Assembly (NCBI GenBank): GCA_947469885.1
Contig: CANIQT010000012.1
Location: 4,951 to 68,950, forward strand
Reading direction: 5' to 3'
Length of the DNA stretch: 64,000 nucleotides
DNA from: Bacteroidota bacterium
GTDB lineage: Bacteria > Bacteroidota > Bacteroidia > 2-12-FULL-35-15
A program made the translations under genes and the position numbers. Position 1 is the first letter of the stretch; every line of letters starts with the position of its first letter. Positions 27,301 through 62,400 of this stretch are shown here, one piece after another. The notes under the pieces were generated by a model. It made no database searches. It was not told the DNA's origin and was given only the letters and a program-made list of their open reading frames with translations.

Positions 27301-29370
27301 ACCTGCACCACCGATTCCTGCGCCACCTTGTGCACCATACGCATCAATGGTAATGGAATTGACACCGGCAGGAACTGTAAAATTAACAATAGAGCCTGAA
27401 TAGGAAAATGTTTGTGAACCGGCTTGTGTTCCACTCTGAGTTTCTGCCCAATAAGTTGTTGTTCCGGCAGGGGTTACCGAAAAATTTGCTGCGCTTGCAA
27501 CAGTTCCTAATAATATACCACCTGTAGAAGCATTGTACCAATTAATAGAGTTACCCGCAGATGTTGCATTAAGATTAGCTGACTGTCCCAAACAAATGCC
27601 CGCAGGAGTATTTACTGAAGGCGCGGCTGGACTTAGCAAACCGCTACCAGTTGCCACCACATTTATATTTGGAGCACCGCCTCCGCTAATAACGATATTA
27701 CCAGTATAAGACTGAACAGCAACAGGGCTGAATTTCACAAATATGGTAGTATTGGTAGTTCCTGCCCCCGGAGTAAAAGTTAAAGAAGAAGTATAGGTAC
27801 CATTTGATGTTAATGAATACGAAAAGCCTGAAAGTGCAGCTAAAGTAACACTTGCTGCAGTAAGGTTGCTGCCCGTTAATATAAAAGAGTTAGGACCAGC
27901 TGTTGAACCGGAACATACATTTCCGAATGCCGCAGGAGGAATGGATACTTGCAGAATAGGAGATATAGAAAGTGTGGTAAAGGTACCTTGGGTACTATAA
28001 GAAATACCAGCACCGTCTTGTGCTTTTAAGTGATAATAATAAACAGTGCTTGGAGTGAGTCCTGTAATAGTGGTCGTATAATTAGCAGGACCTCCTGTTC
28101 CGGCCGTAAAAGTTCCTGTACCATTGGCAAAACCATTGGTAGTACTCCTTTCCACACCGTAAGAAATAACTGAAGAACACCCTTGAGTATAAGTTCCTGT
28201 AATCACTGCTCCATTTGAATTAGGATTTACACTGCCCAAGGTAAGGGCAACAGGAGTATTGACCCCTGTACCTGAAGCAGCAACGTTTATAGTTGCAGCA
28301 CCACCACCACCAACCGGAATATTTCCGGTAAATGTGCCGGCACCCGGGGCAGTAAACTTAACGAAAATAGCTTGAGAATAAGCCCCTCCTGCCTGAGCTA
28401 AGGAAAGAGTGCTGGTATAAGTACCGCCAGCAGTGGTTGAATAACTAAAATTTGCTAAAGCACCAACAGTAACATTGGCAGTTGACAAAGATGTACCAGT
28501 AATGGTAAATGAATTAGGTCCGACTGTTGCGCCCGGACAAGCACCAGTGAGCGGAGCCAAAGCCGTGGCTGAAAGACTGGAAGCAAATGCTCCGCTAATC
28601 CATGTAATTGTAGTAGTAGTATTAGCGCTTGCTGTACCACAGCTAACGTTAGTATTAGAGTGGCAATAATAAGTTCCTGCTACTGTAGATGTAAAGATTA
28701 ACGGTGTACCACCTGAAGCAACAATAGGACCGTTAGAAGAACCAGAGTGAATAGTAATCCATGAGGTTGCAGTACTATTGGTATATTTATAGGTTGTAAG
28801 CGCAGCTATACCAGAGATGGTAGTATATTCAGATTGATAACTAGCTGTACTTATTGTTACTGGTCCTGGTGCCACTGAGGTTGGAGCAGTAGCTGAACCA
28901 TAAGCTGAAGCATTTGTACAGCCTCCTGTACCAACAGCACCGCAGGTAACACAACCAATTGCGGTTGTAGTATTTACAGAGGCGGTCCCGCAAGTAGCAT
29001 TGGTATTAGAGTGACAATAATAGGTACCGGCTATTGGGGCGGTAAACACCAATGGTGTTTTTCCAAAAGCAACAACAGGTCCGTTAGATGTGGTTGCATG
29101 AATTGTTATGTACGAAGCTGCAGCACTATTGGTGTAAATATACTTATTCCCAGCAACAATACCACTGACAGTAGTATATTCACTTTGATAACTTGCGGTT
29201 GAAATAGTAACTACAGTTGCATTAGTAGGTGCAGTTGCACTACCATAGGCACTAGCATTAGTACACTGGGCACTCAACCTAGAAGTTGTAAATCCAACTA
29301 AAAGAACTGCACAGATTAACCAACGTGTGATAGTGTTAATTGTTTTTTTAGAATTTGTAAATTTTTCCAT
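6136..29370 (-). CDS. Giant (7,744 aa) multidomain cell-surface adhesin-like protein, a T9SS substrate: five Gly-rich modules, HYR tandem array, LamG, GEVED, MAM-like, Fn3 and Ig/PKD-like domains, type-A T9SS C-terminal domain
   Basis: A single uninterrupted 23.2-kb ORF. It has a signal peptide (MEKFTNSKKTINTITRWLICAVLLVGFTTSRLSAQ). The C-terminus ...FTDIYPNPATSEFTIDV...MYFVRLLDVDSNVIHSQTVIKQ matches a Por-secretion sorting domain. The composition is dominated by T/G/S/A/N/V. The many antisense ORFs in the track are low-complexity artefacts. Confidence 0.9.
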   Translation of the reverse strand: MEKFTNSKKTINTITRWLICAVLLVGFTTSRLSAQCTNASAYGSATAPTNATVVTISTASYQSEYTTVSGIVAGNKYIYTNSAAASYITIHATTSNGPVVAFGKTPLVFTAPIAGTYYCHSNTNATCGTASVNTTTAIGCVTCGAVGTGGCTNASAYGSATAPTSVAPGPVTISTASYQSEYTTISGIAALTTYKYTNSTATSWITIHSGSSNGPIVASGGTPLIFTSTVAGTYYCHSNTNVSCGTASANTTTTITWISGAFASSLSATALAPLTGACPGATVGPNSFTITGTSLSTANVTVGALANFSYSTTAGGTYTSTLSLAQAGGAYSQAIFVKFTAPGAGTFTGNIPVGGGGAATINVAASGTGVNTPVALTLGSVNPNSNGAVITGTYTQGCSSVISYGVERSTTNGFANGTGTFTAGTGGPANYTTTITGLTPSTVYYYHLKAQDGAGISYSTQGTFTTLSISPILQVSIPPAAFGNVCSGSTAGPNSFILTGSNLTAASVTLAALSGFSYSLTSNGTYTSSLTFTPGAGTTNTTIFVKFSPVAVQSYTGNIVISGGGAPNINVVATGSGLLSPAAPSVNTPAGICLGQSANLNATSAGNSINWYNASTGGILLGTVASAANFSVTPAGTTTYWAETQSGTQAGSQTFSYSGSIVNFTVPAGVNSITIDAYGAQGGAGIGGAGGLGARMQGTVSVNGGDILKILVGGQGGSGNQGGGGGGSFVTTNANAALVVAGGGGGGYYSGGAYSAANSNGSTATAGNAGIYANLSTTGGVGGAAGSGGGCAPAYVGQSEGAGGGGLTGNGSDCIAASTGGRSFTNGGAGGISVGAGNGGFGGGGAGEWSSWTGGGGGGGYSGGGGGTYYGVGGGGGSIINGSTLLAQGGVRSGNGQVIISWPNVVGCTSLTRTSSAVTVNGPVISNPGPQTAAANNSCQAVVNYTATTTQGSLSYVFTGATTGSGSGNGSGSTFNRGVTTVALSATFGGCTANISFTVTVNDVTAPVVNVPANITVVADNATCNGKVVAYTAPTTTDNCGFLVVGSQTFNYTGSIGTFTVPNGVTSINITAKGAQGGSNGGTGGLGAIMTGTFTVTPGQVLSYLVGQQPPNNYSFAAGGGGTFVGLGASNTTATPMIVAGGGGGSVSGLGGNASLTTSGNGPAPGTNGNGAPTTSCGGGAGGYYTSGGNDNLTSPSFIATGGAGFQQGGAGGSGGTNYSTGGFGGGASPNYYGSCNMEAGAGGGYSGGSGMNSGGLAYVGYGGGSYNGGTAQSNSIGNTGNGQIVITWNGLTPSIAPTQSAGLASGVNYPLGTTTNTFTATDAAGNVTSQSFTVTVATQTAFNVTQTGSTCTAAANFVVNLSGSQSGVNYDLYKDGILVGGSTVAGTGGAITFGTQTVAGVYTVKATSGACITTMSGNVTLFATPVVTTPSSAGSCNNVLSNIVLTTNPSGAATFSWPAPVMTGVTGGTSGSGSTIANTLVGLGGTAVYSVTPVLNGCTGSVYPITVTVSTPPTITTAAAQPACAGQVANIPLASSPAGATYTWTLGTISGVSGASACATSCNSTIGQTLTGANGSTVQYNVTPYFGASCPGTVKTITVTLQAAPVATATPSSQALCSGIPTNIALTGGTTYSWTVSQISGGTITGFTPSSGSTIAQTLTNNSGSSGVVRYVVTPASAVCPGNPVNVDVTVSSAPLPPSGVSSNPSSLCTGGTANLSAISTGNTINWYSQSVGGTLYGSSASAANFPVTPTVNTTYYVEANNGGSGSQTINYTGSIVNFTVPATVTSLNITAKGASGGFTSGSTAGNGATMQGTFAVTPGQVLSILVGQSPGLTTLYPAGGGGTFVADGASFATANPLIVAGGGGGAYSGATGTGAPFTTSGTGTNPGTGGNGAPAMSCVGGGGGFYTSGGNDVLYGFFGGAGFRQGGAGGAPAALYAASYQTGGFGGGTAANYVGSCNQQAGSGGGYSGGSGWGVAVNTIGNAGGSYNGGTSQVNTAGNNAGNGQVVITWNVLGCASTRVPLTVNVNTYPAITVQPVTPAPICGAGIATLSVTATNATTYQWYKGVTPLTNTAPYSGVNTSTLTITNPSAAENNASLTCVVGNGTTCTVTSTARILTVNTVPAAPSPVTATPTSVCANGAANLNATSAGSSIFWYNAATNGTLLGTSASAANFGVTPAVTTTYYAEANNGAVGSQTFNYTGSISTFTVPVGVSTVTILAKGAQGGSVTTTCPHTGGLGASMQGTFAVTPGQILSVLVGQQGLTNGSEGGGGGGSFVVASGNTPLIIAGGGGGASNNIATCGAGQLDGLNASITTSGTASGNGLVAGGTAGNGGTNVTGSGSGGAGFLTNGSGGSANPLAYVNGGTGANNGTSIGGFGGGGCGWSTGGQGGGGGGYSGGSTSGTQPYTGGGGGGSYNSGTNQVNTAGAQTGNGQVVISWNISGCASTTRPPVTVTVNTPVITVQPVSPAPVCVSNGTRTISVTATGTVTGYQWRKNGTNLSNVAPYSGATSATLTITNPGLSESGAIYDVVVSNGACSVTSTATTAFSILPTPAAAVVANSGSMCANGTATLTASGLAPAGGGVTLNGTTDYLLTPNLPNAAIANTTLEIWFKAVGPGVIVSEQGNLPVNSGWHDSQIEVLASGQVMVRVWSMTALQIGTVSFGTWNHVVIRYNGGTLDGLLNGVPSGTSTAGGPRQNPNTGLLYYAIGSNDGTNMGSGAYFNGQVDEFRVWNSALTNADIQSWMNREVTASHPNFSNLVAYYKMNSSNILADSKTGAFPLTSVGAPVSTTSNYYTYTWSGSNAPAPSVNETQTTGIITPPQNYTVTANVAGSCAGAPSSTTTIPVATLSTGTTNASSNIALSCTPFPTVTLTASGGTPGVGAVIKWYNGGCGTGNGGTLVGTGSPLTLSGLNGPAATTTYYANYENCAGFNTCGTGATVTISAPSANAISQPYTDNTTGTGITVNWIQGNGTAGEIVVARLTSTTAVDPIGGLTYSASSVFGAGSNLGGGNFVVYDGYNNTVNVTGLTQLTSYTFTIYDYNSITNCYYIPGASSSVTTIATPCVGTPSPGTTLASLASVCPASSLTLSLSTPPVGGGLTYQWQSSPTNSNFVNISGATSATYVTTQSVATYYQCLVTCQGNVGTSTPTQVVMNNVQTCYCTSNLYVTFGCTDNDVIGQVQIPGTTLNNVSGLGCPAGVSGYNDYTNFGALGANFTCTLQASTSYTVNVSTSSFSENYAAWIDYNDDGSFSSAERIGYSLTTVPANSTVGFPVTLACNPPVGQHRLRVRCIFGLANGSTIDPCATTTFGEVEDYLVTIAAPTSCPIPTALAVTSPGQFDAVVNWAAGCTETSWDVEFGAVGHTAGTGTILTTSSNVNYVLTGLPCNSTREVYVRSNCAAFTHGSWVGPVSVTTTACPGAPTVTNISPTSACSNTTVIITGTNFINATSVKFGGTNAASYVVNSATQITAVVGTGTSGVITVVTGSGTGTGSQTFIFSGSGPTVTANPGNLTANTNSNSCDATVTYTCTFSAGTVTYALTGATIASGNGTGSGSVFNNGVTTVTVTSVTGVCSTQAVFTVTVNDATAPTISGCPSTINAFPTNTNCNFSTVTFATPTVSDNCVSTGGGSQTFNYTGGIVNFTVPPGVNSVNITAIGANGGITTGFTPAGGKGAKMQGDIAVTPGQVLKVLVGGVGADGATSSGGGGGGGSFVTTSTNTPLIVAGGGGGIAVSTNAYTPVGADAVTTTSGVNGYSGLGGTPANYGLGGINGNGATTFSGGGGACGGNGGGLLSNGQANASCCPNTYGYGFVNGATGGIVCTATGNGGFGGGGGGGNTAGGGGGGYSGGGASWNNPTNGGGGGSYNSGTNQNNVAGFNPSGNGQVVITWNLTFPTIVQTTGLPSGSSFPVGTTTNTFIASDASGNTSTCSFFVVVSPSPTAFSITTSGSDCSAAGNFSLGLNGSQSGLTYDLYLDGVATGASLPGTGSPISFGVQSAPGVYTVKTTSGSCTVTMNGSATLKPTPVMTTPSAVGACNNATSNILLTTAPANSTFTWTIGTVTGTSTGYSACAGSCGSAIQQLLGGAGTIQYIVTPTLNNCVGSPYTITVTSPVIPNVATTSPQQACSGQVSNIALTSTPAGATYQWTASLASGTTTGFSNSSLANVTSIAQTLTGTGVVNYVVTPYFGAGCSGPSATIAVNVNTVPSVTISPSAPTAFCGGNTTAINLSSTPSGASFTWTTQLLTSAGSVVGYSNCSSSCGTSIAQTLNNPTAANGTVRYKVTPSLNGCSPLTATNVNQTVLPGALTPTSVTALPTTICSGTSANLNATSSTGSTIKWWTQQTGGTLVGSSATGANFSVSPTTTTTYWAEANTATCPNPTRVSVTVNVNPSPSISLITAPSNGQFCSPGSSASFNVTGSGGTGTLNYSWLPTSGLTPTFGQAVTATPSSATTYTATVTDANSCTATATKLITPLPGVTINSITATPATLCATGNSSIALSVTGAATLGYSWSPTTFLGGTSTLQNPTVTGISSTTTYTVTTTTSSNGCTNTGTVAVNVNSTPPSISSFNAGCPGAPVQINGTNLGTTTSVTIGGLATTGLTIISNSIITVVPNASVSGNNVAVSLNTTCGSTSNNTLSFIAIPTINVSPSLSQTICSGASMTPFVLTSTPSGATFSWTRTSPSGITTTAAASGTATTISGNFTTSNGTSTAVPFTINASNGGCPATPVTATVTLSPFLSGVTASSNPPAICAGGTINLLASVSTLSPTLLDPTTNGGFEGGTVGLAASGWSEAQGAVNRQWGVNTAPGVQGGTYAAYEGSETNNNYNGNNTANSVGHFYRDVVVPADYTNVNLSFYYKMPTVDPNNDIFYVYTTTPSNTPVYNTTATLPGGGFTQVYTNTSTAIANYTLQSIPLSGVAGTTVRIVFTFKSNGVTPFANPAVDNVSVTGTPPVATYAWTGPNSFSSSLQNPTGVTPPNLPVNTYSVTATSAGACAVQTVTVAGATPVTCGALTIGGVSTCLGVQTVTAHPTGGNTPYTYVWTQDGLAFGGNTATINSGLGTHTYACSITDACGTNCSSSTSPITTANAPVAVITSPNNTTFCSGVGAPLDATTTGSPTYQWKLGASNIGGATSSTFSPSSTGAYSVIVTEFGCSVTSPQITISTVAAGITLNYVTATPASICNNTSSVLAAGVAAAPVYTTPVSSNGGSTGHEITNFTGLGFAYTNGTPTVSPGYLNRTTTVGTFAANSATSVSVQSNINDSYKVWIDMNDNGSFEDASELLCTSSVGVNPLVTALTIPASCPNGNHRLRIRNTDITANAIAGVSSISAITSGVTIDFTITVTGGVAPAVTYSWLPVTFLGGVTTGPSVTGSNITSPTTYTVTATASSGCHASGTVPVTIKPIATNGTTATTASICTGATTSVALNSSIPGGTWSWVAADNTNVTGESTSNQTLGTITNTLALNTGVITNQDVVYTVTPISPSPDVCAGTPFTVTVTVKPKPTVTNVTPMATVCSGSAISVPLTANIASTFTWVAANNANTTGESLITQNSSTLNNTVTSNNGVTTQQTITYTVTPTSNGCTGAALTRTVLVNPRPGLNVSDITYCPGDAPVTLLNASAPGTTYTWTASSSSPSLTGWSACTSGCGNQINTTNQPLVNNGSTDATVTYIITPVSTIGLLGCAGAPITHHATLGITPADPVVSPTAVVCSGTNANISITAAGNPDFNWTVDPNYSTNVNGPLDCAGACGNAITDFLTNSGTTDEVVIYTVGSNSTEPSACPSLSTVDVAVTIPRNFTINASAAANGTISPSGANNGVCHGTDAPYAINANSNYHIDDLSVDGVTVNAAIGLSSYTYTFINVSADHTINATFALNCTMPVITPPSPITVGNDLHVCGAIVNYSASIAGIPSPSVTYSENSGTFFSLGITTVTISATNLCGTVTSDFDITINDTEAPVITVPAQNMTVQSDGAGNVNEFYDWLITNWADADATDNCTDALHLDNYWVNDYNSANWINQCGTTGRSGLVGFQVYDQAGNYSNSTYAEFKIIDNIAPVITVPPAIVIQENTGNGTSTEPIGTATGTDIGSAVTITYDPQGPYPVGTTTVTWTATDACGNASTGTQVVTVSDTQDPIITCSLSQTQSANLGQCSSYVTVFPPAFSDNSPGASISNDYNFTADASDVYPVGTTTIIWTVTDGSGNSVTCHQDVVITDDELPLITCAPEQDETADLSQCTTFVTVVQPTFSDNCTGSTISNDYNNSPDASDTYPVGTTTVIWTVTDGHGNSATCHQDIVVTDDELPIITCAPEQTHTADLHQCTGFITVTPPSFTDNCSGSTLTNDYNNSTDASGIYPVGTTTVIWTAIDDHGNSATCHQDIVITDDELPLITCAPEQFQTADLNQCSSFVIVIPPSIADNCTGSTISNDYNNTADASDVYPVGTTTIIWTVEDGNGNSATCHQDITVTDDELPTIVCPSEQFQTAELDMCEAFVSISTPQTADNCTGLTITNDYNNTNDASDIYPVGTTTLTWTVLDGYGNSSTCHQDITVTDDQLPMIVCAVAQTQVNDPGQSSAFVSVVTPTFSDNCTAVTIANSYNGTNDATDVYPVGTTTIEWTVTDVHGNTTTCHQDISVTDGEMPTIACDGTITLSADAGLCETAVVVTTPVFGDNSPGVYIVNNITGTDDASGIYPVGITTIEWTVTDFDGNTVSCHQDVQVTDDEFPSITCSGSQTQTADAGTNTAAVTVTAPIFGDNCTGATITNDYTNTNDASGNYPVGTTTVNWEVTDANGNTSTCHQDITVTDDESPTITCSGSQGQTADVGACNAVVSVTTPVFGDNVAGATVINDYTNTDDASGTYPVGTTTVNWTVTDVAGNTSTCHQDITVTDDELPLVSAPASITVCGGAATVVVLGTPSGSDNCGTVTYSSDAPATFGVGTTVVTWTAEDANGNTATATQNVTVLPYFNMVASAGANGSITPNGTTATCSGTSQIYVITANPGFHILDVLVDGVSNSGAIASGTYTFTNVTTTHTISATFESNCTVPLFTNCPATINANTATGLCSSVVTYSSATSGTTPTITYVLSGATTGSGSGNASGTAFNRGTTTVSLTATNGCGVASCSFNITVNDAELPTITAPTAVTVCNGLPVVLGTPVANDNCTYTVTNNHPSSTYPVGTTVVTWTVTDGSGNTATATQNVTVTPTPVVTATGPGTGVICNGANVQLSLNSTVSGSTFTWTSLVTAGGVLGSTNCASNCGTTIQDVLSNSGNVYGVVQYTIVANGGGCTSAPLVVNTTVGAIPATPVISGLSVVCGLSSATYSVAAVPLATNYTWALSAGSTGMTLSGIGQGTTSITVTFSGTVSGNVTCTASNNCGNSGTASIGVSKSPATPTPVQGPASLCGMIGTQVTYSTTTTVGAAANGANGAYTWTVPAGMTIVSGQGTTSIVAQYNTSFVSGTVKVTANNACSFPGPAATLAVTGAAPASPPASISGPANVCGMTTATYSAPPVAGATSYLWSITGAGTITGSNTGTSVTVNLSGTTAGSISVYAVNSCGNSPTARTLNLIITSTAPGTITGPANTCGMTTATYSVTAVANHTYTWTLATGQSFINGSQQGNSTIIVNIAPSVGVTTATSLLKVTASNGCTTTAASQKTITRCLDPNAMNNEVESSATFTDIYPNPATSEFTIDVTSEKDMDVVVEVYDVLGNIVIHERHQVLSGTTTMKTNIEQYRDGMYFVRLLDVDSNVIHSQTVIKQ
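8450..11600 (-). repeat. Tandem array of ~13 HYR (hyalin-repeat) domains in the giant protein, period 249 bp (83 aa), approx. coordinates
   Basis: The unit DDELPxITCxxxQxxTADxxQCxxFVxVxxPxFSDNCTGxTIxNDYNxxxDASxxYPVGTTTxxWTVTDxxGNSxTCHQDIxVTD repeats 11 times strictly, with 2-3 more divergent copies. The DNA landmark CATCAGGATAT recurs every ~250 bp from 8741 to 10740. Confidence 0.75.
13330..13800 (-). other. GEVED-like domain 2 within the giant protein (approx.)
   Basis: The segment ...GFAYTNGTPTVSPGYLNRTTTVGTFAANSATSVSVQSNINDSYKVWIDMNDNGSFEDASELL...NGNHRLRIRNTD... resembles the GEVED architecture but lacks the literal GEVEDY motif. Confidence 0.4.
14500..15050 (-). other. MAM-like / galactose-binding-like beta-sandwich domain within the giant protein (approx.)
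   Basis: The segment LLDPTTNGGFEGGTVGLAASGWSEAQGA...GHFYRDVVVPADYTNVNLSFYYKMPTVDPNNDIFYVYTT...VRIVFTFKSNG...AVDNVSVTG. A GGFE...W start and a DNVxV end are typical of MAM and CBM-like sandwich domains. Confidence 0.4.
17700..18570 (-). other. Gly-rich module 5 of the giant protein (FNYTGGIVNFTVPPGV...GGGGGGGSFV...GGGGGSYNSGTNQ...NGQVVITW), approx.
   Basis: CCACC runs at 17800-17900 on the DNA encode GNGGFGGGGGGGNTAGGGGGGYSGGG. Confidence 0.6.
19420..19960 (-). other. GEVED domain within the giant protein (approx.)
   Basis: The segment CYCTSNLYVTFGCTDND...AAWIDYNDDGSFSSAERIG...GQHRLRVRCIF...TTFGEVEDYLVTI carries the signature GEVEDY motif, encoded at ~19424-19445. Confidence 0.6.
21120..21650 (-). 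other. Laminin-G-like / concanavalin-A-like lectin domain (LamG_3-type) within the giant protein
   Basis: The segment ...LEIWFKAVGPGVIVSEQG...WNHVVIRYNGGTLDGLLNGV...AYFNGQVDEFRVWNSALTNADIQSWM. The final DE-x-R-hydrophobic-W motif is characteristic of the domain. Its position was confirmed by back-translating 21121-21210. Confidence 0.6.
22040..27450 (-). repeat. Four further Gly-rich modules (modules 1-4, each ~250 aa) of the giant protein, interleaved with Ig-like/HYR-like domains; approx. module spans 26670-27450, 25480-26250, 23330-24080, 22040-22760
   Basis: Each module begins (S)QTFNYTGSIxxFTVPxGVxSxxIxAKGAQGG, then ...TPGQVLxxLVGQ...GGGGG(S/T)FV...PLIVAGGGGG..., and ends GGSYNxGTxQxN...GNGQVxIxW. 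The DNA shows matching CCACC/CCGCC runs. Confidence 0.65.
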
Positions 29371-29430
29371 TTTGTTTTGTTTTAGGATAGTAATTTAATT
29401 TGTAATTTTTTTGTTATATGTTTTGTTATT

Positions 29431-29533
29431 TGTTTTTGTAGGGATACCGAATTATTACGAATTTACGAATTTGTGTTTGTTTTGTTTTTGTACGGATAAC
29501 TAATTATTACGAATTTACGAATTTGTGTTTGTT
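29431..29533. repeat. Two tandem ~51-bp direct repeats in the promoter region of the giant gene, each containing tandem ACGAATTT octamers
   Basis: Copy 1 is TGTTTTTGTAGGGATACCGAATTATTACGAATTTACGAATTTGTGTTTG (29431-29480) and copy 2 is 29483-29533, about 90% identical. They lie 60-165 bp upstream of the ATG at 29370. A third related copy is at 60277-60311. Confidence 0.6.
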
Positions 29534-29545
29534 GTTATAAATTAT

Positions 29546-29812
29546 TTATTTATGAAAAAAATAGGCTAACATTCCTGCTACCACTGCCACTTGTCCAATC
29601 CAAAATATAAACATCCATTTAATAATTTCTGCTTTTGTATTTGCTAATTCCGTTCTTAATTTAGCTAAGTCTTCTTTTGTTGATAAAATATCTTTATGTT
29701 GAGTTACCTCATTTTTTACTTCCTGCTTAATTCCTTCTACTATCGCCTGAGCTTCCTGCTCTGCAAACTTTCCTTTTAATATATTGTAGAGTGTAATTTC
29801 TGAAACTTGCAT
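29546..29812 (-). CDS. DUF1640 (CCDC90-like) small coiled-coil protein with a C-terminal TM anchor
   Basis: 88 aa. The motif ...LSTKEDLAKLRTELANTKAEIIKWMF is followed by a hydrophobic tail (IFWIGQVAVVAGMLAYFF). The ATG lies 9 bp downstream of the Uma2 stop, giving an operon-like layout. Confidence 0.45.
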   Translation of the reverse strand: MQVSEITLYNILKGKFAEQEAQAIVEGIKQEVKNEVTQHKDILSTKEDLAKLRTELANTKAEIIKWMFIFWIGQVAVVAGMLAYFFHK

Positions 29813-29821
29813 TGTTGTTTT

Positions 29822-30397
29822 TTAACTAATTATTTCACTCAGCTTCAATTCAAATCCGGGTAAAATGTTTTCACCAGAAAGTGTTGTTGTAAAAGGTTGT
29901 TCAGTAATTTCGGTATTTGGTTTATAAATTAATGTTGTTTTATTTTCTATGTCAATAAGCCATGCAAAACGGCAACCATTGGTTATCCATTCTTCCATTT
30001 TTTCTTTTTGTTGTTTTAACGAATCGCTGTCGGAGCGTACTTCAATAACAAAATCAGGACATACATGTGCAAATTTATCTTTCTCTTTTTCTGATAATGA
30101 ATTCCATCTTTCATTCGAAATCCAGGAAACATCTGGTGCCCGCATGGCAGTATTTGGAAGGGTAAAACCTGCACTGGAATCGAATACAATTCCTGATTTG
30201 TTTTTTTTATTCCATACATTAAGTTCGTAGCCAATATTGGAATGGTACATACCTGTTTTTGAAAATGAAGGTGTCATTACTATAATATTTTTATCCTTAT
30301 CTCTCTCTAGGCGCAACTCATTGTTATCAGCACAAAGCATATAGAACTGCTCCTCGGTGAGGTTGGCAGATTGTGTATGTATGGCTATTGGTTGCAT
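29822..30397 (-). CDS. Uma2-family (DUF820) PD-(D/E)xK endonuclease
   Basis: 191 aa. The sequence LTEEQFYMLCADNNELRLERDKDKNIIVMTPSFSKTG...APDVSWIS...CPDFVIEVRSDSDS...W fits the Uma2 pattern, with the PD-(D/E)xK core at PDFVIEVRS. Confidence 0.7.
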   Translation of the reverse strand: MQPIAIHTQSANLTEEQFYMLCADNNELRLERDKDKNIIVMTPSFSKTGMYHSNIGYELNVWNKKNKSGIVFDSSAGFTLPNTAMRAPDVSWISNERWNSLSEKEKDKFAHVCPDFVIEVRSDSDSLKQQKEKMEEWITNGCRFAWLIDIENKTTLIYKPNTEITEQPFTTTLSGENILPGFELKLSEIIS

Positions 30398-31045
30398 TTT
30401 TTATTTCTTCTTTTTCTTAATTATAGATGACATTTATTGTTAAATGGTTGCATTGGTTAGACATATTGTATATTCTAACAAATGAATATCAAAATATGTA
30501 TGATGTATGCTTTGCTTTGTTTTGTGTTGTAATTACTATATGTTTACGCGTTATTTATTTTTATTCTTAACAATAATTTCGTGCAAATTCACTCCACCCC
30601 TAATTTCCGAACAGCAAAGTAATAACATTCTGATTGAAAAAACAAATCTTTCATCTCTTTTTTTACACCATCCTCTCATTTTAAGGGACGTCCATTTTGG
30701 CTTTTTTTAACTGTTTTTTGTTTCCAAAAAAACGTTTGGTTTTATTTTAGAAATTAATAGCACAGCCTAATTGCCCATAAACAGTACATTATACAGCTTT
30801 ACAACAAACACATCATCCGTTTTTATTTCAAACAATCATCTGTTTTAATGAAATAAAATACCGAAATAAATTTTTTATTTTTTTTATTAAAAAAGCATTA
30901 AACCAACCAATTATAACAAAAATCTGGCTTGTTCGCCCCATTTCAATTTCTGTTTGTGTTACACATTTTAAATTATTTTTTATACTTATTATACTTTAAA
31001 AACTCAAAAAGGTTGCGGATTTGTTTGGTGCAAAAACAAAAAAAA

Positions 31046-31070
31046 TCCTGCTCCGAATTTCGGAACAGGA
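31046..31070 (-). terminator. Rho-independent terminator of the 318-aa orphan gene (bidirectional hairpin)
   Basis: The stem TCCTGCTCCG / CGGAACAGGA has one G-U wobble on the minus-strand RNA. An A11 run lies 5' and a T6 run lies 3'. It is 28 bp downstream of the stop at 31098. Confidence 0.65.
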
Positions 31071-31097
31071 TTTTTTGTTTTTTACGCTTGATTTAAC

Positions 31098-32054
31098 CTA
31101 CAAAAAATCGATGGTAAATTCACCTTTATTAATAGTGTCGGGATTGAACACCATTAAAAAATGTTGCGTTGTTACATCTCCCAAATCGCTTGCCAACACA
31201 GTGATGTGACCACCTGCCGGAACAATAATAAACATTGCACCAATGGCTCCATCTCTTACATCCGAAAGATAAATACGCAATTCTGTTACTCCATCGTTTT
31301 CAATCTCCAACTGATCAGTTGCTTCAATGGTGCGCTCTACAACCGTATGCACTGCTTCTTTTTTTACAGCATGTTGAAACACCATTTGTGTAATGTTTCG
31401 AATGGTTAACAAATCGAAAAACGTTCCAATAAACACTTTGTTGCTTACATAATGTGCCATCAACGAACCTAAATCAACATACTGTGCATCGCACATTTCA
31501 ACTCTTGCCGCTTCCAATTCGTTGCTTTTAACTTTTGTAGTTTCGATACTTGTTTTTTGAGTATCCACCGCAAGCGTAATGGCAATGTAAAAATTGTCAA
31601 CATCGAGTTTCACAGCAGCCAAAGCGACATCAGCTCCAATGGCAATACTAAGCGAATTAATTGCTTCCACCTTTTCGTCCTGTGTACCATGCTGAAACGG
31701 CCCATGTCCATTAGGAAACATTTGCTGATATCTCACAGTTCCTTTTGCATAAACACTTGCAATGGCAACATCCCATGCGTTTATTTTTTCAAATCCAAGC
31801 TGAGCAAACATTTCATATAATGCTGCTGTCAAACCTTTCTGAATCCCAAGTTGTGCTTTCCATGCACCATACTTTGCAAGATAAGCCAAATGAAATGGCT
31901 TATACGCATTATACAATGCAAGCACAACTGCATCGGCAATATTTGCCTGAAGCGCGTTGTAGTGTATCCTTGATACACGCAATGCCAATCTGAAAGAGCT
32001 ACCTGTAGCTATTTCGATGACATTCATTAAAAAACTCCATAATCTGGTAGTCAT
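31098..32054 (-). CDS. Hypothetical protein, 318 aa, no recognisable family; acidic, A/V/T-rich, no signal peptide, possibly a structural/shell-type protein
   Basis: A clean ORF with an ATG start and a terminator hairpin. Its codon usage is less AT-skewed than its neighbours. Unlike every other gene in the 6-48 kb block, it has no secretion signal. Confidence 0.55.
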   Translation of the reverse strand: MTTRLWSFLMNVIEIATGSSFRLALRVSRIHYNALQANIADAVVLALYNAYKPFHLAYLAKYGAWKAQLGIQKGLTAALYEMFAQLGFEKINAWDVAIASVYAKGTVRYQQMFPNGHGPFQHGTQDEKVEAINSLSIAIGADVALAAVKLDVDNFYIAITLAVDTQKTSIETTKVKSNELEAARVEMCDAQYVDLGSLMAHYVSNKVFIGTFFDLLTIRNITQMVFQHAVKKEAVHTVVERTIEATDQLEIENDGVTELRIYLSDVRDGAIGAMFIIVPAGGHITVLASDLGDVTTQHFLMVFNPDTINKGEFTIDFL

Positions 32055-32297
32055 GATTTCTATTTATTTAATTGTTATTACTATATTAATTTCTCCGCTT
32101 TACAATTTAATGTAATTTAAAAACTCCATAGAGGCGGTTGAATCTAAAGAGTAGTTTCTGTTTTTAAAATAAGTTGAACCTGCTTATTACAGGCAAAATA
32201 CTGTTTCTTCATGTGTTTAAGTATTAAAGATTAAATCAAAGGAACACTTTCCTCTGCAAAATTTTTGTTTTTCAGTTTTTACTAATCAGGATATATG

Positions 32298-32580
32298 CAA
32301 AACAGTTGTCCGAACACTATGTCAAGCTAAACAATACACTCAGACAGTTGTCTGAGCACATTCGTTAGTTAAACATTAGATTAAGACAAGTGTCTAAGCG
32401 TATTTCCAAGATAGATAATACGCCCAGACTACTGTATTTGCGAATTCCCATAATAGGTAATTGGCTTAGACAGTTGTCTAAGCCAATCCCTAAGATAGCC
32501 TAAAGGCAAAAACAACTGTCCGAACGTATTCCCTTGCTTGACATAAAGCCCAGACAACTGTCTGAATGGGTTCCTAAATT
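32298..32580. repeat. Iteron-like array: 7 direct copies (~42-bp period) of a unit containing the inverted repeat AGACA-nn-TGTCT
   Basis: Cores lie at 32302, 32342, 32384, 32426, 32468, 32512 and 32552. Examples are cAGACAGTTGTCTGAGCacATTCg, AGACAAGTGTCTAAGCgtATTTCC and cAGACAACTGTCTGAAtgggTTCC. Copies 1 and 6 carry the variant ACAgtTGTCCGAAC. The array lies 240-530 bp upstream of the orphan gene start at 32054 and abuts a ~450-bp AT/T-rich tract at 32600-33060. Confidence 0.6.
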
Positions 32581-33061
32581 GGGAAATGCTAAAAGTGATA
32601 GTTAATGATGTTATCAAAAACGAGGGAGAAGGGAAAACCAACCGTTATAGCGTATCCTCCAAATCCAAGAAAAAGAATACCAGTTGATTTTGCCCTTTCC
32701 CAAATAGGAGAAAACATCAAACTATTAAAAGTATTTCAAAGAACTAATGCGTGAATGGTAAGCGTAATTGTAAATGTTGTAATTGTAATCTGTTTGAGAG
32801 TAAAGTTACTTCATGCAGGTAGGGGTTTTTGTGGTTTTTTTGTTGGTTTTAAAATTGTGTTCGGGTATTTTGTTGTTGTCTTTATTGTGCTTTGTTATTT
32901 TATTTTTTTTGATGTTTATGAGTAAGACGATTGAACGTATTAAAAGTTACATCTGAACTTAACTATTTTTATTGTTGTTTACTATCATAACTCAAAAACT
33001 TAAAAAAGATACAGAAATATCGTAATTATTTTTTGAGTAACAGAAATTATGCCAAAAAAAA

Positions 33062-33092
33062 AGTCCCGTTCTTCAAAAAGAAGAACGGGACT
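33062..33092 (-). terminator. Rho-independent terminator of the 1,003-aa gene (perfect 13-bp stem, bidirectional)
   Basis: The stem is AGTCCCGTTCTTC / GAAGAACGGGACT with the loop AAAAA. An A9 run lies 5' and TTTTTATT lies 3'. It is 35 bp downstream of the stop at 33127. Confidence 0.8.
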
Positions 33093-33126
33093 TTTTATTA
33101 ATCCTCCCACCTTTCGGTGAGGTATG

Positions 33127-36100
33127 TTACTGCTTAATCACAGTTCCAGAGTGGATAATATTAGAATCAGCATCTAACAAGCGAACGAAATACATTCCGT
33201 CATTGCTTTGTTCGATGTTTGTATTCATAGTACTAGTACCACTTACAACGTTGTGTTTTTCGCTTATTACTAAGTTACCAAGTATATCATATACTTCAAC
33301 AGTTACCACCTGAGCTTTTTCTGTTGTCACGTCTATAGTGAATACAGTTGAAGCAGGGTTAGGGTAAATGTTAGAGAATGTTGCACTTGATTCTACACCA
33401 TTGTTCATAGCAATAGGGTCGGCACAACGAGTAATAGACAGAGTTTTTTGTGCACTGGTACTTCCGCAAATGTTAGTAGTACTAACTTTTATTGAACCTG
33501 CAGCAGAATTGATGTTAGACAACGGTCCGGTGATGGTGATACTTGAAGTACCCTGTCCGGAAGTAATTGTCCAACCTGTAACCACTATTGCCCAGTTGTA
33601 AGAAGCTATTACTGCTCCCAAGTTAGGAGTTGTATAAGTAGCTGAAGTTAAACCACAAAGATTAGCCGGACCGCTTATAGAAGCTGGTACAGGTGATGTA
33701 ACCACTAAGTTAGCAGTTCTTGGAAGACCTTCTCCGCAAGCACTAACCGCTTTACAAGTTAATACTCCTGTAGTACCTCCAAGTGTAACTGTAGCAGTTG
33801 TTCCGCTACCAACCACCGAGTTTCCTGCTCCTGTTACAGACCAGTTATAACTTGATGCTCCGGCAACTGCTGCCACAGAAACGTTGATAGATGACAATCC
33901 GCATACGTTAGACGGCACACCTGATATAGCAACCGGTGCAGCTGGCACATTTCCGGTAACCACTAAAGTGGTTAAAGGACTGTTAGAACAACTGTTAGTT
34001 GCTTTTACAGTTACGTTACCAGTTACAAACGAAGTGTTATAGTTAATAACAATCGAAGTTGTTCCCTGACCACTAGCTATTGTAGTTCCTGTTGGTACTG
34101 TCCAGGTATAACCTGTTGCACCTTGCGATGTACTGCAAGTGTAAGTAGCTGCACTTAGCGTTCCAACTAAACCACAAAGAGTAGCAGGACCTGAAGTGAT
34201 GGTTGGAGTAAACGGAACTTTAGATACATCAAGAGTTGCTGTACCACCGTCTCCACAGTCGTTAGAAGCATAAACGGTTACCTGACCTAAAATAGTTCCG
34301 GCAGCTACGTTAACAGTAATAGAAGTACTGTTCTGACCACTTGTGATGGTCATACCAGATGGTACTGCCCAAGTGTAAGAAGTTGCCTCCGCTACTGTTG
34401 GTATAGTATAAGTTGTTGCTCCAACAAAACACACTACCTGAAGACCTGAAATAACAGGAGTTGCTGGTAATGCACCTACTGTAGCTGTTACAGTAAATGT
34501 TGAACCACTACAAGTTGCATAAGTAGGAGTAACAGTATAAGTTACCACACCATGAACAGGGTTACCATTGTTTGATAATGTATTAGTAATAGTAGTTCCG
34601 CATCCAGATGCACAATTAGTTGCACCTGTTACAGTTCCTGTAGTTACTGATGAATTCCATGTAAATGAAGTTCCTCCTATGTTAGAAGAAAGCGCAATGT
34701 TTGCAGGGCTTCCATCACAAATAATAACGTTAGATGCAGAACCAACTGGCGAAGCACTTACCACAACATTTTGATTGGCTGTAGTTTGGTGACCAGCAGG
34801 GTCGGTAGCAATCCAAGTGATTACTGTAGTTCCAACAGGATAAGAAACCAACGCACCTGTGTTTGAAATTGAAACAGAACAGTTATCGTTTGCAGTAGGA
34901 GTACCTAAAACAACCGGTGAACCGAAACATACATTTACATCTGCAGGTGCTGTAATTGTAGGGAATTGAGTATCCTGAACGGTTACATCAAAATTACAAT
35001 TAGTTGAACCGTTAATGTTAGTTGCTGTAACAATTACATTGGTAGTACCCACAGGGAAAGATGTTCCCGGATTCTGACTGTAAGTAATTACCGGAGCAGG
35101 AACACTTGAAGAAGTGGCTGCGAAACTCACTGAAGAGTTTGCACACAAACCTGTTGAGTTACTTGCAAGAATGTTAGCAGGACAACTTACAGAAGGAGCA
35201 CTTATGTTACCAATTGCAAATGTGCTTGGAGTACCCATTGCGGTAACCCCTGTACATTGAGTATTGGTTGCATTTTGAGCTCCATTTGTTGTTGCTGACC
35301 ATGTACTTACATCAAGTTTTCTCACAACCATTGTTGAAGTTACAGGGCTACCTACTAAATCACCCGCTACAAAATTAAATGTAGGGCTGTAAGAAGTAAA
35401 TCCTGATACTCCGTTGTTGGTTAAGTTCCACTGTCTGTTAACATACTGAGTTTGGCTGATACCTGAAGCTACTGCCGGTGTACCTGTTACAGTAGCTGCA
35501 TCAATACTTCCTGAACCTGATGGCGTTCCCGCGAAATCAAGAGTTACAGGTGTGTAATTAGACGCATCTCCGATACAGAAAGTAGTAGATAAACTGGCAG
35601 TTGCAGGGATAAATCTGCGCATGTTACCGTTTACATATTTTCCTGTACCTGCACCGCTAACTGTAGCAGCACTGCCAAGTATCACATAGAAACTTCCTGT
35701 GTTGATTTTTCCGGAGGTAAATGTCAATGTTCCGTTTACAACAATGTTACCGGATAAGGTAATACCATTACTGTTGTTAACTACCAGGTTGTTGAATGTA
35801 GTGGTAGTAGTTCCGCCTAAAGCCTGAACTGCTGTTCCATTAAACTCAACTGTACCCGGACTTGCATTTACAAGACCATTCGCATCGTTTGTCCAGTCGC
35901 CTTTGATTTGAACAGCACCGCTGTTATCAATAGCTCCTGAATTCTGGATGTGAATACTTCCATCGGTGTTTATGTAAGCACCTGAACCAACGTTTATTCT
36001 TGAGTTGTCCACATTAATATTTTGTGCACTCAAACGTAAACTGAAAGTAAAACCAACTATCATCGCAGCCACCAAAAGTGCTGCACGGGACAATCCTCTA

Positions 36101-36207: not shown

Positions 36208-39990
<3,783 letters not shown>

Positions 39991-40724: not shown

Positions 40725-43700
40725 TTAACGCAATAACATAACACTTCCCTGCTCTTTCACCGTTTCTCCATTACAAAAAGTAACTTCGAGCATATAAGCA
40801 AACTCATCATTGTTCATTGGTAACCCTAGAAAGGTTCCGTCCCAACCCTGCAATATATTTGCTGTTTCGAATACTTTTTCGCCAACACGATCATATATTT
40901 TCAGATTAATAAAGTCTATTCCTCTACCATGAACAAGTAATAAATCATTATTATTATCTCCATTAGGTGAAAAACCGGTAGGCATAAAATAAGTGAAGAT
41001 TGGATTCACAGTTACTACTGTGGTATCAGAGGCAGGGCATCCATTCACATCTTGATAGGTAACATAGTATTGCTGAGTGGCAGAAGGCGAAACTGTTGCT
41101 ATCTGGCAGGTATTGCATGAAATTTGTGCATTAGATGGACCCCACAAATAAGAAAGTCCAGAAGGTTGAGCGGTTAACTCTGTAAATTCACACGAATTGA
41201 TAGAAGTGTTACCAGTAATGGCAACTGGAATAGGAGTTACAATATGAATATAATTAAGTCGGATAAGTGTATCTGCGCCCCCCGAATTGGTAACAATTAA
41301 TACGACCGTATAATCACCAGGAGCGGTGTAACAAACGTTTATTGGTCCGCTGGTATTGGCTGATGCAGGTACTCCACCTGGAAATTGCCAACTCCAAGTA
41401 GTAGGAGGACCAGAACTTAAATCAATAAAATTAACACATCCACTATTACAGATAAGTGTGTCGTCAGCCATAAAATTAGCAGAAGGTGGTGTACAACTGT
41501 TTGCTGTAACCGTTGCAACAGCAGTGGCAGAACATCCATTTGATGTTCCTGTGACCGTATAGGTGGTTGTTCCTAAAGTTCCAGGTGTAGCAGTTGCAGT
41601 GTTTACACCTGAGGCAGTAGCACCTGCACTCCAACCATAAGTGGTGGCCCCTCCAGCGGTTAATGTTGCCGAGGTACCTAAACAAATGGATGGAGAATTA
41701 ACCGTAACAATAGGGATAGGATTTGCAGTTATTGTTACCTGGGAAGTGGTTGGTGAACAAGGTAAACTGGTTATGGTCCATTGAAAAACATTGGCACCAG
41801 CTCCAAGACCAGTTACTCCGGATGTAGGAGAAGTTGGGGTTGTTATTGTTCCTGTACCACTTATTAATGTCCAAAGTCCTGTTCCAACAGTTGCAGTATT
41901 TCCAGCAAGAGTTGCTGTAGTTCCACAAATAGATTGATTAGCCCCTGCAATTGCAGTAGTTGGGGCAGGATTAACCGTAATGGTTACTTGAGCAGAAGTG
42001 GAAGGGCAAGGGGCATTAGAGATGGTCCATTGAAAAACATTGGCTCCTGCACCCAAACCAGTAACAGTAGAGGTAGGAGATGCAGGTGTAGTAATAGTTC
42101 CAGCACCACTTATCAATGTCCATAATCCAGTGCCTATAGTAGCCGTGTTCCCAGCTAATGTAGCAGTAGAAGTACAAATAGATTGATTTGCACCGGCAGT
42201 AGCAACTGTTGGGGTTGTAGCAGAAGTGATGGTAACCTGAGATGTAGAAGCAGGACAAGGAAGGTTATCTATTTCCCATTGAAAAACATTGGCACCTGCT
42301 CCTAAACCAGTAATGGTGGTGGTTGGAGATGTAGGTGTTGTAATTGTTCCCGAGCCGCTGATTAAGGTCCAAAGTCCAGTTCCAACAATAGGTATATTTC
42401 CAGCCATGGTTGCAGATGTCCCGCAAATGGTTTGATTAGGTCCTGCAACAGCCGTAGTTGGTCCGCCTGTGTTCGTAATTGTAACCTGTGATGACGAAGC
42501 AGGACAAGGAGAATTGGAAATGGTCCATTGAAAAACATTCGCTCCTGCTCCTAAACCAGTAACTGTTGATATTTCTGATGAAGGAGTAGTAATTGTTCCA
42601 GCACCACTAATTAATGTCCATAATCCAGTACCCAGTGTCGCTGCATTTGCTGCAAATGTTGCTGAAGTTGAACAAGCTGTCTGATTTGGTCCCGCTACCG
42701 AAACTGTTGGTGCACTTACTGATGTGATAGTTACCTGAGAAGTGCTGGCAGGGCAAGGAAGATTATCTATTTCCCATTGAAATACATTTGCTCCTGCACC
42801 TAAACCAGTAATAGTTGTTGTTTCAGATGTTGGAGTGGTGATGATTCCTGTTCCACTAACCAATGTCCAAAGTCCAGTTCCTACAATAGGTGCATTTCCA
42901 GCCATGGTTGCTGTGTTTCCGCATACAGTTTGATCGGCTCCAGCAACTGCTGTTGTTGGTCCGCCTGTGTTAGTAATGGTAACCTGCGATGATGATGCAG
43001 GGCATGGAGCATTGGTAATGGTCCATTGAAAAACATTGGCTCCTGCACCTAAACCTGTAACTGTTGATACTTCTGATGAAGGAGTAGTTATTGTTCCTGC
43101 TCCACTAATTAATGTCCAAAGTCCAGTGCCCACTGTTGCTGCATTTGCTGCAAATGTTGCTGAAGTTGAACATAAAGTTTGATTTGGTCCTGCAACGGAC
43201 ACAGTGGGCACTCCTACTGAAGTTATGGTTACCTGCGAAGTAGAAGCAGGACAAGGAAGATTATCTATTTCCCATTGAAATACATTTGCTCCTAATCCTA
43301 ATCCTGTTATTCCAGATGTTGGTGAAGTTGGAGTGGTGATGGTTCCTGTTCCGCTTATTAATGTCCAAAGTCCAGTTCCTACAATTGGTGCATTTCCAGC
43401 CATGGTTGCTGTTGCTCCGCAAACTGTTTGATCGACTCCTGCAACTGCTGTTGTTGGTCCTCCTGTATTTGTTATTGTTACTTGTGAGGATGAAGCTGGA
43501 CAAGGAGCATTGGAGATTGTCCATTGAAAAACATTGGCACCAACTCCTAATGCAGTAACTGTTGATACTTCTGATGTAGGAGTAGTAATAATGCCTGCTC
43601 CACTAATTAATGTCCAAAGTCCTGTACCCACTGTTGCTGCATTTGCTGCAAATGTTGCTGATGTGGAACACAAAGTTTGATTTGGTCCTGCAACGGACAC

Positions 43701-47987: not shown

Positions 47988-48125
47988 TGTTTCATAAAGT
48001 GCTGAGCTTAAAAAGTGTACCAAATTAGAACATTTTTTTGGTTCACAAAAATAATAAAACATTTAATAGATTAATAACCCTTATCTTAGGATAGAAAAAC
48101 GTAAAAAGGTATCTACGACATAAAT

Positions 48126-61979: not shown

Positions 61980-62149
61980 TTCACAAGGTTTTCTTCAAAT
62001 TCACAAGGTTTTACTTTTTTATATTTCAAATATAAATATGTTTGCAACATTATTTATAAAATGTTCTTAAAAATACAGGAAAGGCGGAGGTTTAGGAGGA
62101 AAAACTGGAAGTTAGTTTTCAAAACCCTAAACCTTTTTCTCAAAGTTCA

Positions 62150-62296: not shown

Positions 62297-62400
62297 GGAA
62301 AACTTTGGAAAAAGGTTGGAAAAATGAAAGTAAAGAATGCCGGGATGAAGCAAGAGGTTAAAATAAATCATAATAACAATAATAATTAAAAACAAAACAA

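Follow-up and report, generated by a model that had tools for sequence, protein, structure and literature searches.

An exactly 42-bp-phased dyad array accompanies a family of uncharacterized ~316-aa proteins in Bacteroidota

INTRODUCTION

A 64-kb stretch of Bacteroidota DNA (the window, by which we mean this whole stretch) contains a regularly spaced array of short inverted repeats upstream of a gene for a 318-aa protein. Does this array belong to the gene next to it and, if so, what might it do? A sequence-only reading of the window had taken the array either for the iterons of a plasmid replication origin (oriV), beside an unwinding element and an orphan gene that could encode the replication protein, or for a multi-operator array bound by a dimeric protein. 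Here, we compare the locus with those of its relatives and weigh these and other readings of the array.

RESULTS

Seven dyad-bearing units lie in exact register upstream of a 318-aa gene

A repeat search and a direct reading of the DNA both place seven copies where the sequence-only reading had seen them (Table 1). AGACANNTGTCT is present exactly four times in the 64-kb window (at 32342, 32384, 32468, and 32552), each time within the array and with spacings of 42, 84, and 84 bp; degenerate copies of the dyad are ACAGTTGTCC at 32302, AGACTACTGTAT at 32426, and ACAACTGTCC at 32512. When the gene strand is written in rows of 42 nt, all seven dyads share one column, and the period is therefore exactly 42 bp. 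Hence, the earlier view that the units lie roughly four helical turns apart on one face of the helix stands, but the 40- to 44-bp spacing assigned to them does not. The A dyads, all of the AGACA-NN-TGTCT type, are centered at 32305.5, 32347.5, 32389.5, 32431.5, 32473.5, 32515.5, and 32557.5, with an eighth, decayed dyad position centered at 32263.5. The B segments (22–26 bp) are more variable and have a weaker dyad. A short inverted repeat had been claimed for every unit, and a dyad is indeed found at each of the seven positions; the two unit variants that had been distinguished, ..TGTCTGAG and ..TGTCCGAAC, are both present.

The self-identity of the array at a lag of 42 is 0.62 over 168 nt, compared to a maximum of 0.47 among shuffled sequences (0 of 500 shuffles reach 0.62). 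Its units are only ~48% identical to one another, which is why Tandem Repeats Finder, when run on the window, did not report the array. The eighth unit is identical to that of a related locus, L004, at 35 of 42 positions, and the hairpin or dyad within it has a G·T pair in the window where L004 has a G-C pair. Three other, independent assemblies of the species have exactly this array, which is therefore stable rather than hypermutating. We ruled out that it encodes a 14-aa repeat, as stops interrupt every frame. Elsewhere in the same 64-kb window, there is a second, 21-bp array that is clearly A-tract-phased.

Table 1. Coordinates of the array, the linked gene, and the surrounding elements in the window
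Feature	Position	Strand	Description
Intrinsic terminator of the 318-aa gene	31040..31076	-	17 pairs, then a T run
318-aa protein gene	31098..32054	-	Unannotated Bacteroidota family
Recombination patch in the gene	31530..31830	-	Codons ~75-175, tip of the helical bundle; synonymous sites saturated versus L004
Proximal region	32055..32230	-	74-98% identical to L004
Eighth, decayed unit	32231..32272	.	CAAAAATTTTG in register; then the conserved hairpin/dyad AGAGGAA-AGTG-TTCCTTT at 32237-32256
Array of seven 42-bp units	32273..32566	.	A dyad and B segment in each unit; exact register over 294 bp
Distal conserved block	32596..32870	.	91% identical to L004/5/6; four-fold sites 70% identical
Solitary motif TTTCAAAGAACTAAT	32733..32747	+	One A half-site plus core (CAAAGAAC)
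T-rich spacer	32871..33054	.	Poorly conserved, with indels relative to L004
Bidirectional intrinsic terminator	33055..33099	.	20-nt arms, 95% complementary

The linked protein belongs to a large family with a predicted new fold

The 318-aa gene had been described as an orphan. An exhaustive profile search instead recovered 1,229 representatives at 50% clustering (E ≤ 0.001; 543 of them with E ≤ 1e-30), whereas a word-indexed search for relatives returned only 21 clusters. The gene therefore belongs to an unannotated family of 1,229 clusters at 50% identity. Its members are ~316 aa long, with almost all of the 150 best-scoring representatives at ~315 aa, and those that carry a name are each a "hypothetical protein" from Bacteroidia, Bacteroidales, or "Bacteroidetes" MAGs. 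Neither the 318-aa protein nor any of 30 diverse relatives matched Pfam, PHROGs, NCBIfam, or PADLOC.

To judge from a confident AlphaFold model built on a 76-sequence alignment (pLDDT 95.5, pTM 0.75), two antiparallel helices of ~60 residues each (42–101 and 143–201) form a long helical bundle, with an inserted tip that bears an invariant P119-F120-x-x-G123 loop (P-F-Q-x-G), and a C-terminal 8-strand jelly-roll follows (225–317). No PDB chain matches the model at E ≤ 0.001 in a fold search, the weak matches being to PirA, cupins, Ena pilus subunits, and Tc-toxin shells, and the predicted combination of helical bundle and jelly-roll appears to be novel. The sequence-only reading had found the protein not obviously DNA-binding, and this impression held: no nucleic-acid-binding fold is recognizable in the model. 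The protein is acidic (pI 5.5).

The 42-bp period travels with the gene family

We fetched the DNA around relatives of the gene from metagenome and MAG contigs, which yielded 16 loci whose upstream DNA could be read. In the 1 kb before the start codon, the strongest self-similarity lag is 42 in 15 of the 16 loci and 84 in the remaining one (L024), whose array alternates between two unit variants. In 14 of the 16 loci, no shuffle out of 500 reaches this self-similarity; the exceptions are L019 (24/500) and L023 (4/500), each with only ~220–270 nt of upstream DNA. The array is always 5′ of the gene in the loci examined, and their proteins are 30%–81% identical to that of the window (only 30%–45% in L020–L025). 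Gene and array had been suspected to belong together, and they do, with an array of this kind at 16 of 16 loci. Hence, across the loci examined, a 42-bp-phased array is obligately linked to this gene family. In the literature, our searches met no relevant description of a 42-bp repeat in Bacteroidota.

What else travels with the array? Neighboring genes are not conserved among distant family members, and the gene and its upstream region therefore form an autonomous unit; a giant T9SS cargo gene lies downstream of the 318-aa-type gene in the clade of the window. No conserved regulator gene is found near the array among the loci examined. A 91-aa ORF upstream of the L001 array looks HTH-like by eye and has no Pfam match. 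Two of the loci, L024 and L025, share the locus-tag prefix VIH57_ and are therefore paralogs in one MAG, which holds a third paralog, L026. The arrays of L024 and L025 differ from each other; indeed, the repeat sequence differs completely between lineages and between paralogs in one genome.

Dyad arms differ among lineages yet remain complementary

In consensus units, the A dyad commonly reads CAAAnGA-AC-TCnTTTG and, in the window, TCAGACA-AC-TGTCTGA. Most lineages have a second (B) dyad 21 bp out of phase with the first: the two centers fall at columns 9.5 and 30.5 in L009, L008, and L018, the dyads of L020 are 21 bp apart by a reading of its consensus, and L022 has three dyads per unit. Examples of B dyads are CATTCCC-GAGTTG-GGGAATG, CTATTTTAAAATAG, ATCTTTT-TTTT-AAAAGAT, and TCTGTTCGAACAGA. 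Each dyad measures 14–16 bp with an unpaired center of 0–6 nt, and an array has 6–16 of them. The arms change from lineage to lineage and still pair, while the best conserved part is the innermost A-NN-T, often AACT or AGTT. Segments between dyads are repeated within arrays, and entire units are near-identical in L009, L021, and L022. Since 42 bp (4 × 10.5) make 4.0 turns of B-DNA and 21 bp make 2.0, all dyads lie on one helical face.

Arms that are free to change while symmetry and period are kept could also belong to an intrinsic DNA-structure element with no dedicated binder, in which curvature, cruciform potential, or supercoil sensitivity would tune the promoter and template-switch (quasi-palindrome) mutation would keep the palindromes symmetric. 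The phased A/T tracts in the arms of many lineages, e.g., GCAAAAAG..CTTTTTGC and CTATTTTAAAATAG, agree with such an element, as does the presence of an A-tract-phased array elsewhere in the window. However, the array in the window itself has no A-tracts, arms of 6–8 bp are short for cruciform extrusion, and the conserved center motif, together with a solitary half-site motif outside the array, suggests sequence recognition. We regard a purely structural element as distinctly unlikely.

The repeat sequence turns over while the register is fixed

Between the window and L004, the proteins are 81% identical and four-fold sites differ by 29.5%. The distal block is 91% identical and the proximal 230 bp are 74%–98% identical; with four-fold sites at ~70% identity, both flanks are thus more constrained than silent sites. 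The arrays in between behave otherwise. Aligned in register from either flank, their rows share only 11–19 of 42 positions (~33%, where chance alone would give 27%); inside each array, units are 46%–48% identical, with one more unit in L004 than in the window. The register runs through these 7–8 units without an indel, although indels normally accompany that much substitution, and we infer selection on the spacing. In a second pair (L009 and L011, dS ~0.27), the arrays are ~78% identical, near the neutral rate, and the distal blocks are 95%–100% identical. A third pair, L018 and L019, is 100% identical from −118 through the whole CDS, save for a 1-nt frameshift in L019, and the arrays are only ~45% identical with the same register.

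A functionless, decaying minisatellite, which the sequence-only reading had also entertained, would account for window units that are only ~48% identical and for a repeat sequence that is not conserved in the closest relative. It would not account for an array that is found in this position in 16 of 16 loci, with a 42-bp period (84 in L024), in a family diverged to ~30% identity, nor for a register that is unbroken despite sequence saturation, nor for an array that is the same in independent assemblies of one species. The comparative data contradict a decayed minisatellite, which we consider hardly credible.

The gene itself is a mosaic in comparison to L004: pS is 0.70 (saturated) in codons ~75–175, and dS is ~0.2 on either side. 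In an otherwise young locus, then, two patches are old, the array and the helical-tip segment, and for this reason the two could be functionally coupled. When we compared array type with the N, M, and C regions of the protein in 13 loci, we saw only a weak hint of co-variation; L004 is closer to L009 than the window is, in both the array and the M region. The L018/L019 pair, with identical genes and different arrays, speaks against array-protein coupling.

The flanks and the AT-rich tract do not support a replication origin

The proximal region, presumed to be the core promoter and 5′ leader, includes CATGAAGAAAC (32203–32213) and the hairpin CCTGTAATAAGCAGG (32179–32193); both are found again in L018/L019, where one pair has changed in a compensatory way, from C-G to A-T. 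The distal block has neither a conserved ORF nor an Rfam match at or near the gathering score. A solitary half-site plus core ([CT]AAAGAAC) is present 20–260 bp distal of the array in five lineages. On the far side, the bidirectional terminator ends the upstream 1003-aa T9SS-cargo gene and marks the outer edge of the module. Shared 8-mers between the array and the CDS are no more frequent than chance. We rejected a 49-aa ORF (32605–32751, +) as a gene because only the sister lineage retains it, with an interruption in L004, and the other loci lack it. A 56-aa ORF (32755–32925) falls in a region with indels.

The tract from 32600 to 33054 is AT-rich (GC 0.25–0.33) and T-rich on the + strand. 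An AT/T-rich tract is therefore present beside the array, as had been noted, but it is not uniform: the conserved block extends to 32870 and is followed by a variable, indel-bearing spacer. In the oriV reading, this tract would be the unwinding element and the 318-aa protein would be the Rep, and it is true that repeats phased at 21/42 bp adjoin both the tract and a Rep-sized gene. Several observations argue against an origin, however. First, the loci lie on chromosomal contigs of up to 517 kb, between secreted-adhesin genes, and there are several copies per genome. Second, the stretch from 32055 to 33126 lacks a DnaA box (≤1 mismatch), and there is no GC-skew switch. Third, Pfam, NCBIfam, PHROGs, PADLOC, and fold searches gave no match to a Rep, winged-helix, or other replication initiator. 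Finally, the sites are dyads rather than direct iterons, and the AT-rich tract is not conserved at other loci. The sequence-only reading had proposed a search of plasmid and phage databases; neither the array nor the protein matched any of 72,556 plasmids (PLSDB) or 50,697 phages (INPHARED), and the protein had no match in IMG/VR. Iterons and an unwinding element at an oriV are, in our view, extremely unlikely here.

The array has no consistent signature of an RNA element

Could the array work as RNA? It would then be transcribed with or just ahead of the gene as tandem hairpins, two per 42 nt, and would serve as a leader or as a scaffold for a protein, e.g., in translational autoregulation or processing. 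The dyads themselves lend some weight to this possibility: arms covary and are hypervariable whereas the center is best conserved, a hairpin-loop-like pattern that differs from that of a classical operator and counts against a double-stranded DNA reading. On both strands (z = −11.3 and −6.3), the window array also folds much more stably than shuffled sequences do, and no consistent terminator separates array and gene across loci. On the gene strand, the proximal leader has one compensatory pair and one G·U-compatible change.

Promoter positions can be read in either direction. We searched all loci for the canonical Bacteroidota promoter (TTTG-N19-21-TAnnTTTG) and found none in the window or in L004. 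A canonical promoter (TTG-N20-TAATTTTG) lies distal of the array in L009 and L011, where the array may consequently be transcribed, and canonical promoters are proximal in L021–L023; the search therefore does not settle whether the array is transcribed. The L021 array starts ~25 nt after the terminator of the upstream gene, which leaves no room for a promoter upstream of it.

Other features are at odds with a structured RNA. Of 13 consensus dyads listed, 7 are complementary to within 0–2 nt of their center, and the L020 B dyad, read as TCTGTTCGAACAGA, is an eighth; such centers leave no space for a hairpin loop. Among 836 arm positions, gene-strand mismatches show no excess of G·T (51, versus 42 A·C). 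We folded both strands of 14 arrays as RNA: the gene strand is more stable in five (the window, L008, L013, L020, and L021), the opposite strand in another five (L009, L011, L012, L022, and L024), and the remaining four differ by <4 kcal/mol. There is thus no strand preference across loci, and the strong z-scores of the window array come from self-complementarity, as in any dyad array. The asymmetric center has no fixed orientation with respect to the gene. It flips within arrays (window, L004) and also differs between loci: the gene strand reads AGTT in L012, L013, and L022 but AACT in L001, L009, L011, and L018. A fixed period of exactly 42 is not explained by RNA. No Rfam match approaches its gathering score: a scan of positions 29000–34000 with Rfam 15 gave only weak, sub-threshold matches (E 0.04–0.7), mostly on the flanking terminators, with mir-4662 overlapping the array (22.7 bits versus a gathering score of 97). 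We favor a double-stranded DNA platform over an RNA-level element, which we consider unlikely.

DISCUSSION

What, then, might the array do? The reading that we favor, with a probability of about one half, is a double-stranded DNA platform in which dyad sites on one helical face support a cooperative protein assembly that controls the gene. The array would be the variable core of a ~1-kb upstream control region of the ~316-aa family. A dimeric factor would bind each dyad, neighboring dimers would touch along the shared face to build a cooperative, higher-order nucleoprotein complex, and this complex would switch the promoter of the downstream gene. Protein binding, cooperativity, and a transcriptional-control output are thus what we infer; the period, the dyads, the obligate link to the gene family, the rapid turnover of repeats in a kept register, and the constrained flanks are what we observed. 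Of the two proposals of the sequence-only reading, the multi-operator array for a dimeric binder fits best, given the dyads, their four-turn and two-turn phasing, the lack of an RNA-strand signature, and the upstream position. This operator-array reading is the best supported, with binding as its prediction from sequence.

Which protein would bind? The gene's own product is the only constant partner of the array and a candidate binder. Against it, this sole linked protein is acidic and lacks a recognizable DNA-binding fold, and the L018/L019 pair, with ~45% identity between arrays upstream of identical genes, is hard to reconcile with a sequence-specific cognate binder. A bolder and more tentative proposal, which we think unlikely, is that the ~316-aa protein, with its putative new fold, recognizes its own upstream phased dyads via the recombining tip (codons ~75–175) and polymerizes along one DNA face, making the locus a self-contained nucleoprotein module. 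If so, these would be DNA-binding proteins of a new class, and the module would act as a heritable switch or addressing system that has diversified into mutually orthogonal paralogs within single genomes.

What is new here is the family-wide, obligate coupling of an exactly 42-bp-phased, fast-turnover dyad array with a large, uncharacterized protein family. What looked like an orphan gene and a minisatellite becomes a defined and widespread module that spans at least 1,229 protein clusters and, in one or more genomes, is present several times. It can be recognized by a sharp, testable signature: its repeat sequence changes faster than silent sites, and its period stays at four helical turns. 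The module also provides an entry point to a large set of proteins annotated as "hypothetical." Standard tandem-repeat finders overlook arrays of this kind, in which the period is exact and the units have diverged. If a protein reads these arrays, they would constitute a new Bacteroidota DNA-recognition system with naturally orthogonal variants, one that could serve as a toolbox of orthogonal parts and would bear on how genes are regulated in a phylum that is ecologically dominant.

Among known systems, the closest architectural match is sopC of the F plasmid, which has 12 repeats of 43 bp; SopB binds the 16-bp inverted repeat present in each of them (PMC3177203). That sopC is an established protein-binding array speaks for our favored reading. 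Both have many copies of a unit of nearly the same length (42 bp here) with dyads of similar size (14–16 bp here), next to a gene that encodes the binding protein in sopC and a putative one here. In contrast, the repeats of sopC hardly differ from one another and follow sopB in the sopAB operon of a plasmid, whereas our units are ~48% identical, mostly have a second dyad, and lie upstream of a single chromosomal gene. Could the array be a centromere-like or chromosome-organizing site that nucleates a partition or bridging complex? Its rapid diversification resembles incompatibility-driven divergence, and paralogs within one genome have different arrays. But no ParA NTPase, ParB/RHH gene, or other NTPase is linked in any locus examined, the family has no ParB domain, and the fold of the protein is neither that of ParB or RHH nor any other known for centromere binding; moreover, a genome has three or more copies, and the array always directly precedes one gene. 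We consider a centromere-like role very improbable.

Iterons of theta-replicating plasmids (RepE, pi, TrfA, RepA) are direct repeats bound by a monomeric winged-helix Rep at an origin with DnaA boxes. Our arrays share with them the phased sites, a two-turn (21–23 bp) sub-period, an AT-rich stretch (in the window), and a gene of ~300 aa, and related iteron replicons carry lineage-specific repeat sequences, as do the array lineages. They differ in having dyads, no winged-helix fold, no DnaA box, and a chromosomal, multi-copy context.

TIGR arrays consist of 36-nt units with box C/D motifs and two spacers, beside Nop-domain Tas proteins, and stem-loop TIGR arrays have palindromic flanks with little sequence conservation (10.64898/2026.09.09.750476). 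Like TIGR-Tas, the locus in the window is a non-CRISPR tandem array beside a compact ~300-aa protein; unlike TIGR-Tas, it has 42-bp units, 0- to 6-nt centers with no room for a spacer, and no strand bias. No Nop domain matched at E ≤ 1 in Pfam (window protein and 30 members), there was no Nop5/snoRNP fold match, and we saw no consistent box C/D-like motif in the arrays by eye. In CRISPR arrays, spacers are unique, which is a misfit with the repeated inter-dyad segments described above, and no Cas family was found among the scanned ORFs adjacent to the array.

BrickBuilt of Porphyromonas gingivalis is a species-specific 23-nt direct repeat in a mobile MITE, with 19 per genome, whose copies adjoin unrelated genes (PMC4596501). 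It too is an intergenic tandem repeat in a Bacteroidota member, with a proposed promoter or regulatory activity (PMC4596501). The 42-bp array, in contrast, accompanies a single protein family throughout the class and occurs only once in the 64-kb window. With regard to REP/BIME elements, the dyad is confined to this array within the window, and no HUH/RAYT transposase domain was detected in the linked protein (Pfam; PDB fold search, E ≤ 0.001).

Phased operator arrays, such as those for Lrp at pap, NrdR boxes, and ArgR boxes, have 2–6 conserved sites and a known regulator family. Our arrays have more dyads (6–16), with arms that turn over faster than synonymous sites. They resemble these operators in having dyads placed integral helical turns apart upstream of a gene, and the dyad spacing and upstream position of the generic class of phased dyad operators are found at 16 of 16 loci (42 bp, or 84 bp in L024).

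A recombination patch in the gene and possible allelic replacement of an array

Compared with its closest relative (L004; 81% protein identity), the 318-aa gene shows a sharp recombination patch. Third-position differences amount to 7–10 of every 15 inside the patch, versus 0–4 of 15 in the remaining gene. Because dN/dS is 0.09 within the patch, it is an old allele under purifying selection that has been set into a young background.

Two lake-metagenome contigs (L018 and L019) are 100% identical in CDS and leader, yet their arrays (L018, 1–175; L019, 1–160) are unrelated, and the switch falls directly after the conserved CATGAAGAAAC motif. In addition, the L019 gene carries a frameshift of 1 nt near codon 143. 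The array difference reflects either a real allelic replacement or an assembly chimera.

Arrays and their flanking sequences

Since 42 is a multiple of three, arrays of this period readily stay open in one frame. The ORFs called across the arrays of two relatives, L021 and L024, are probably spurious annotations that hide these arrays in public records.

In two further relatives (L009 and L011), the 100%-conserved block distal to the array contains a sigma-A promoter of the canonical Bacteroidota type (TTG-N20-TAATTTTG) directed toward the array and gene; neither the window nor L004 has an equivalent. Immediately beyond the conserved module, L009 has tandem repeats, each with a hairpin (AAGCTCCGTTAGGAGCTT), that are absent from L011 and resemble a REP-like or MITE-like element.

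The window holds another periodic array, between a LytTR-domain gene (61419–61979) and a 225-aa ORF (62401–63078) without a Pfam match. Its lag-21 identity is 0.74, its A-tracts recur about every 10.5 bp, and its consensus includes a mini-palindrome, TTCCGGGAA. The repeats may represent either curved DNA or a series of LytTR-type sites.

Features of the window and of related loci
Feature	Location	Strand	Detail
ORF called through 42-bp array	L021:4306-4911	-	201 aa
ORF called through 42-bp array	L024:2298-2600	+	100 aa
Recombination patch vs L004	window 31530-31830		codons ~75-175
Sigma-A promoter	L009 ~1806		about -793
Sigma-A promoter	L011 ~5244		about -751
84-nt tandem repeats	L009:1280-1550		n=3; about -1320 to -1065 from ATG
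21-bp direct repeats	window 62140-62300		n=8; consensus CGGGAAAAAAGnnAAATCTTC
Uma2-family putative endonuclease and coiled-coil ORF	window 29546-30397		191 aa; 88 aa
Very large ORF	window 6136-29370	-	7,744 aa
Very large ORF	window 36208-39990	-	1,260 aa
Very large ORF	window 40725-48062	-	2,445 aa

Gene neighborhood

The window contains three very large minus-strand ORFs. Approximately 11 collagen triple-helix stretches in the 1,260-aa protein account for a 63-bp DNA periodicity at 37.4–39.4 kb, and the 1003-aa neighbor combines PKD domains with a T9SS C-terminal sorting domain. The Uma2-family protein also matches the PADLOC candidate system PDC-S03. In the window, the Uma2-family gene and the 88-aa ORF separate the 318-aa gene from the 7,744-aa ORF. 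The family gene of other lineages is directly followed by a giant T9SS cargo gene.
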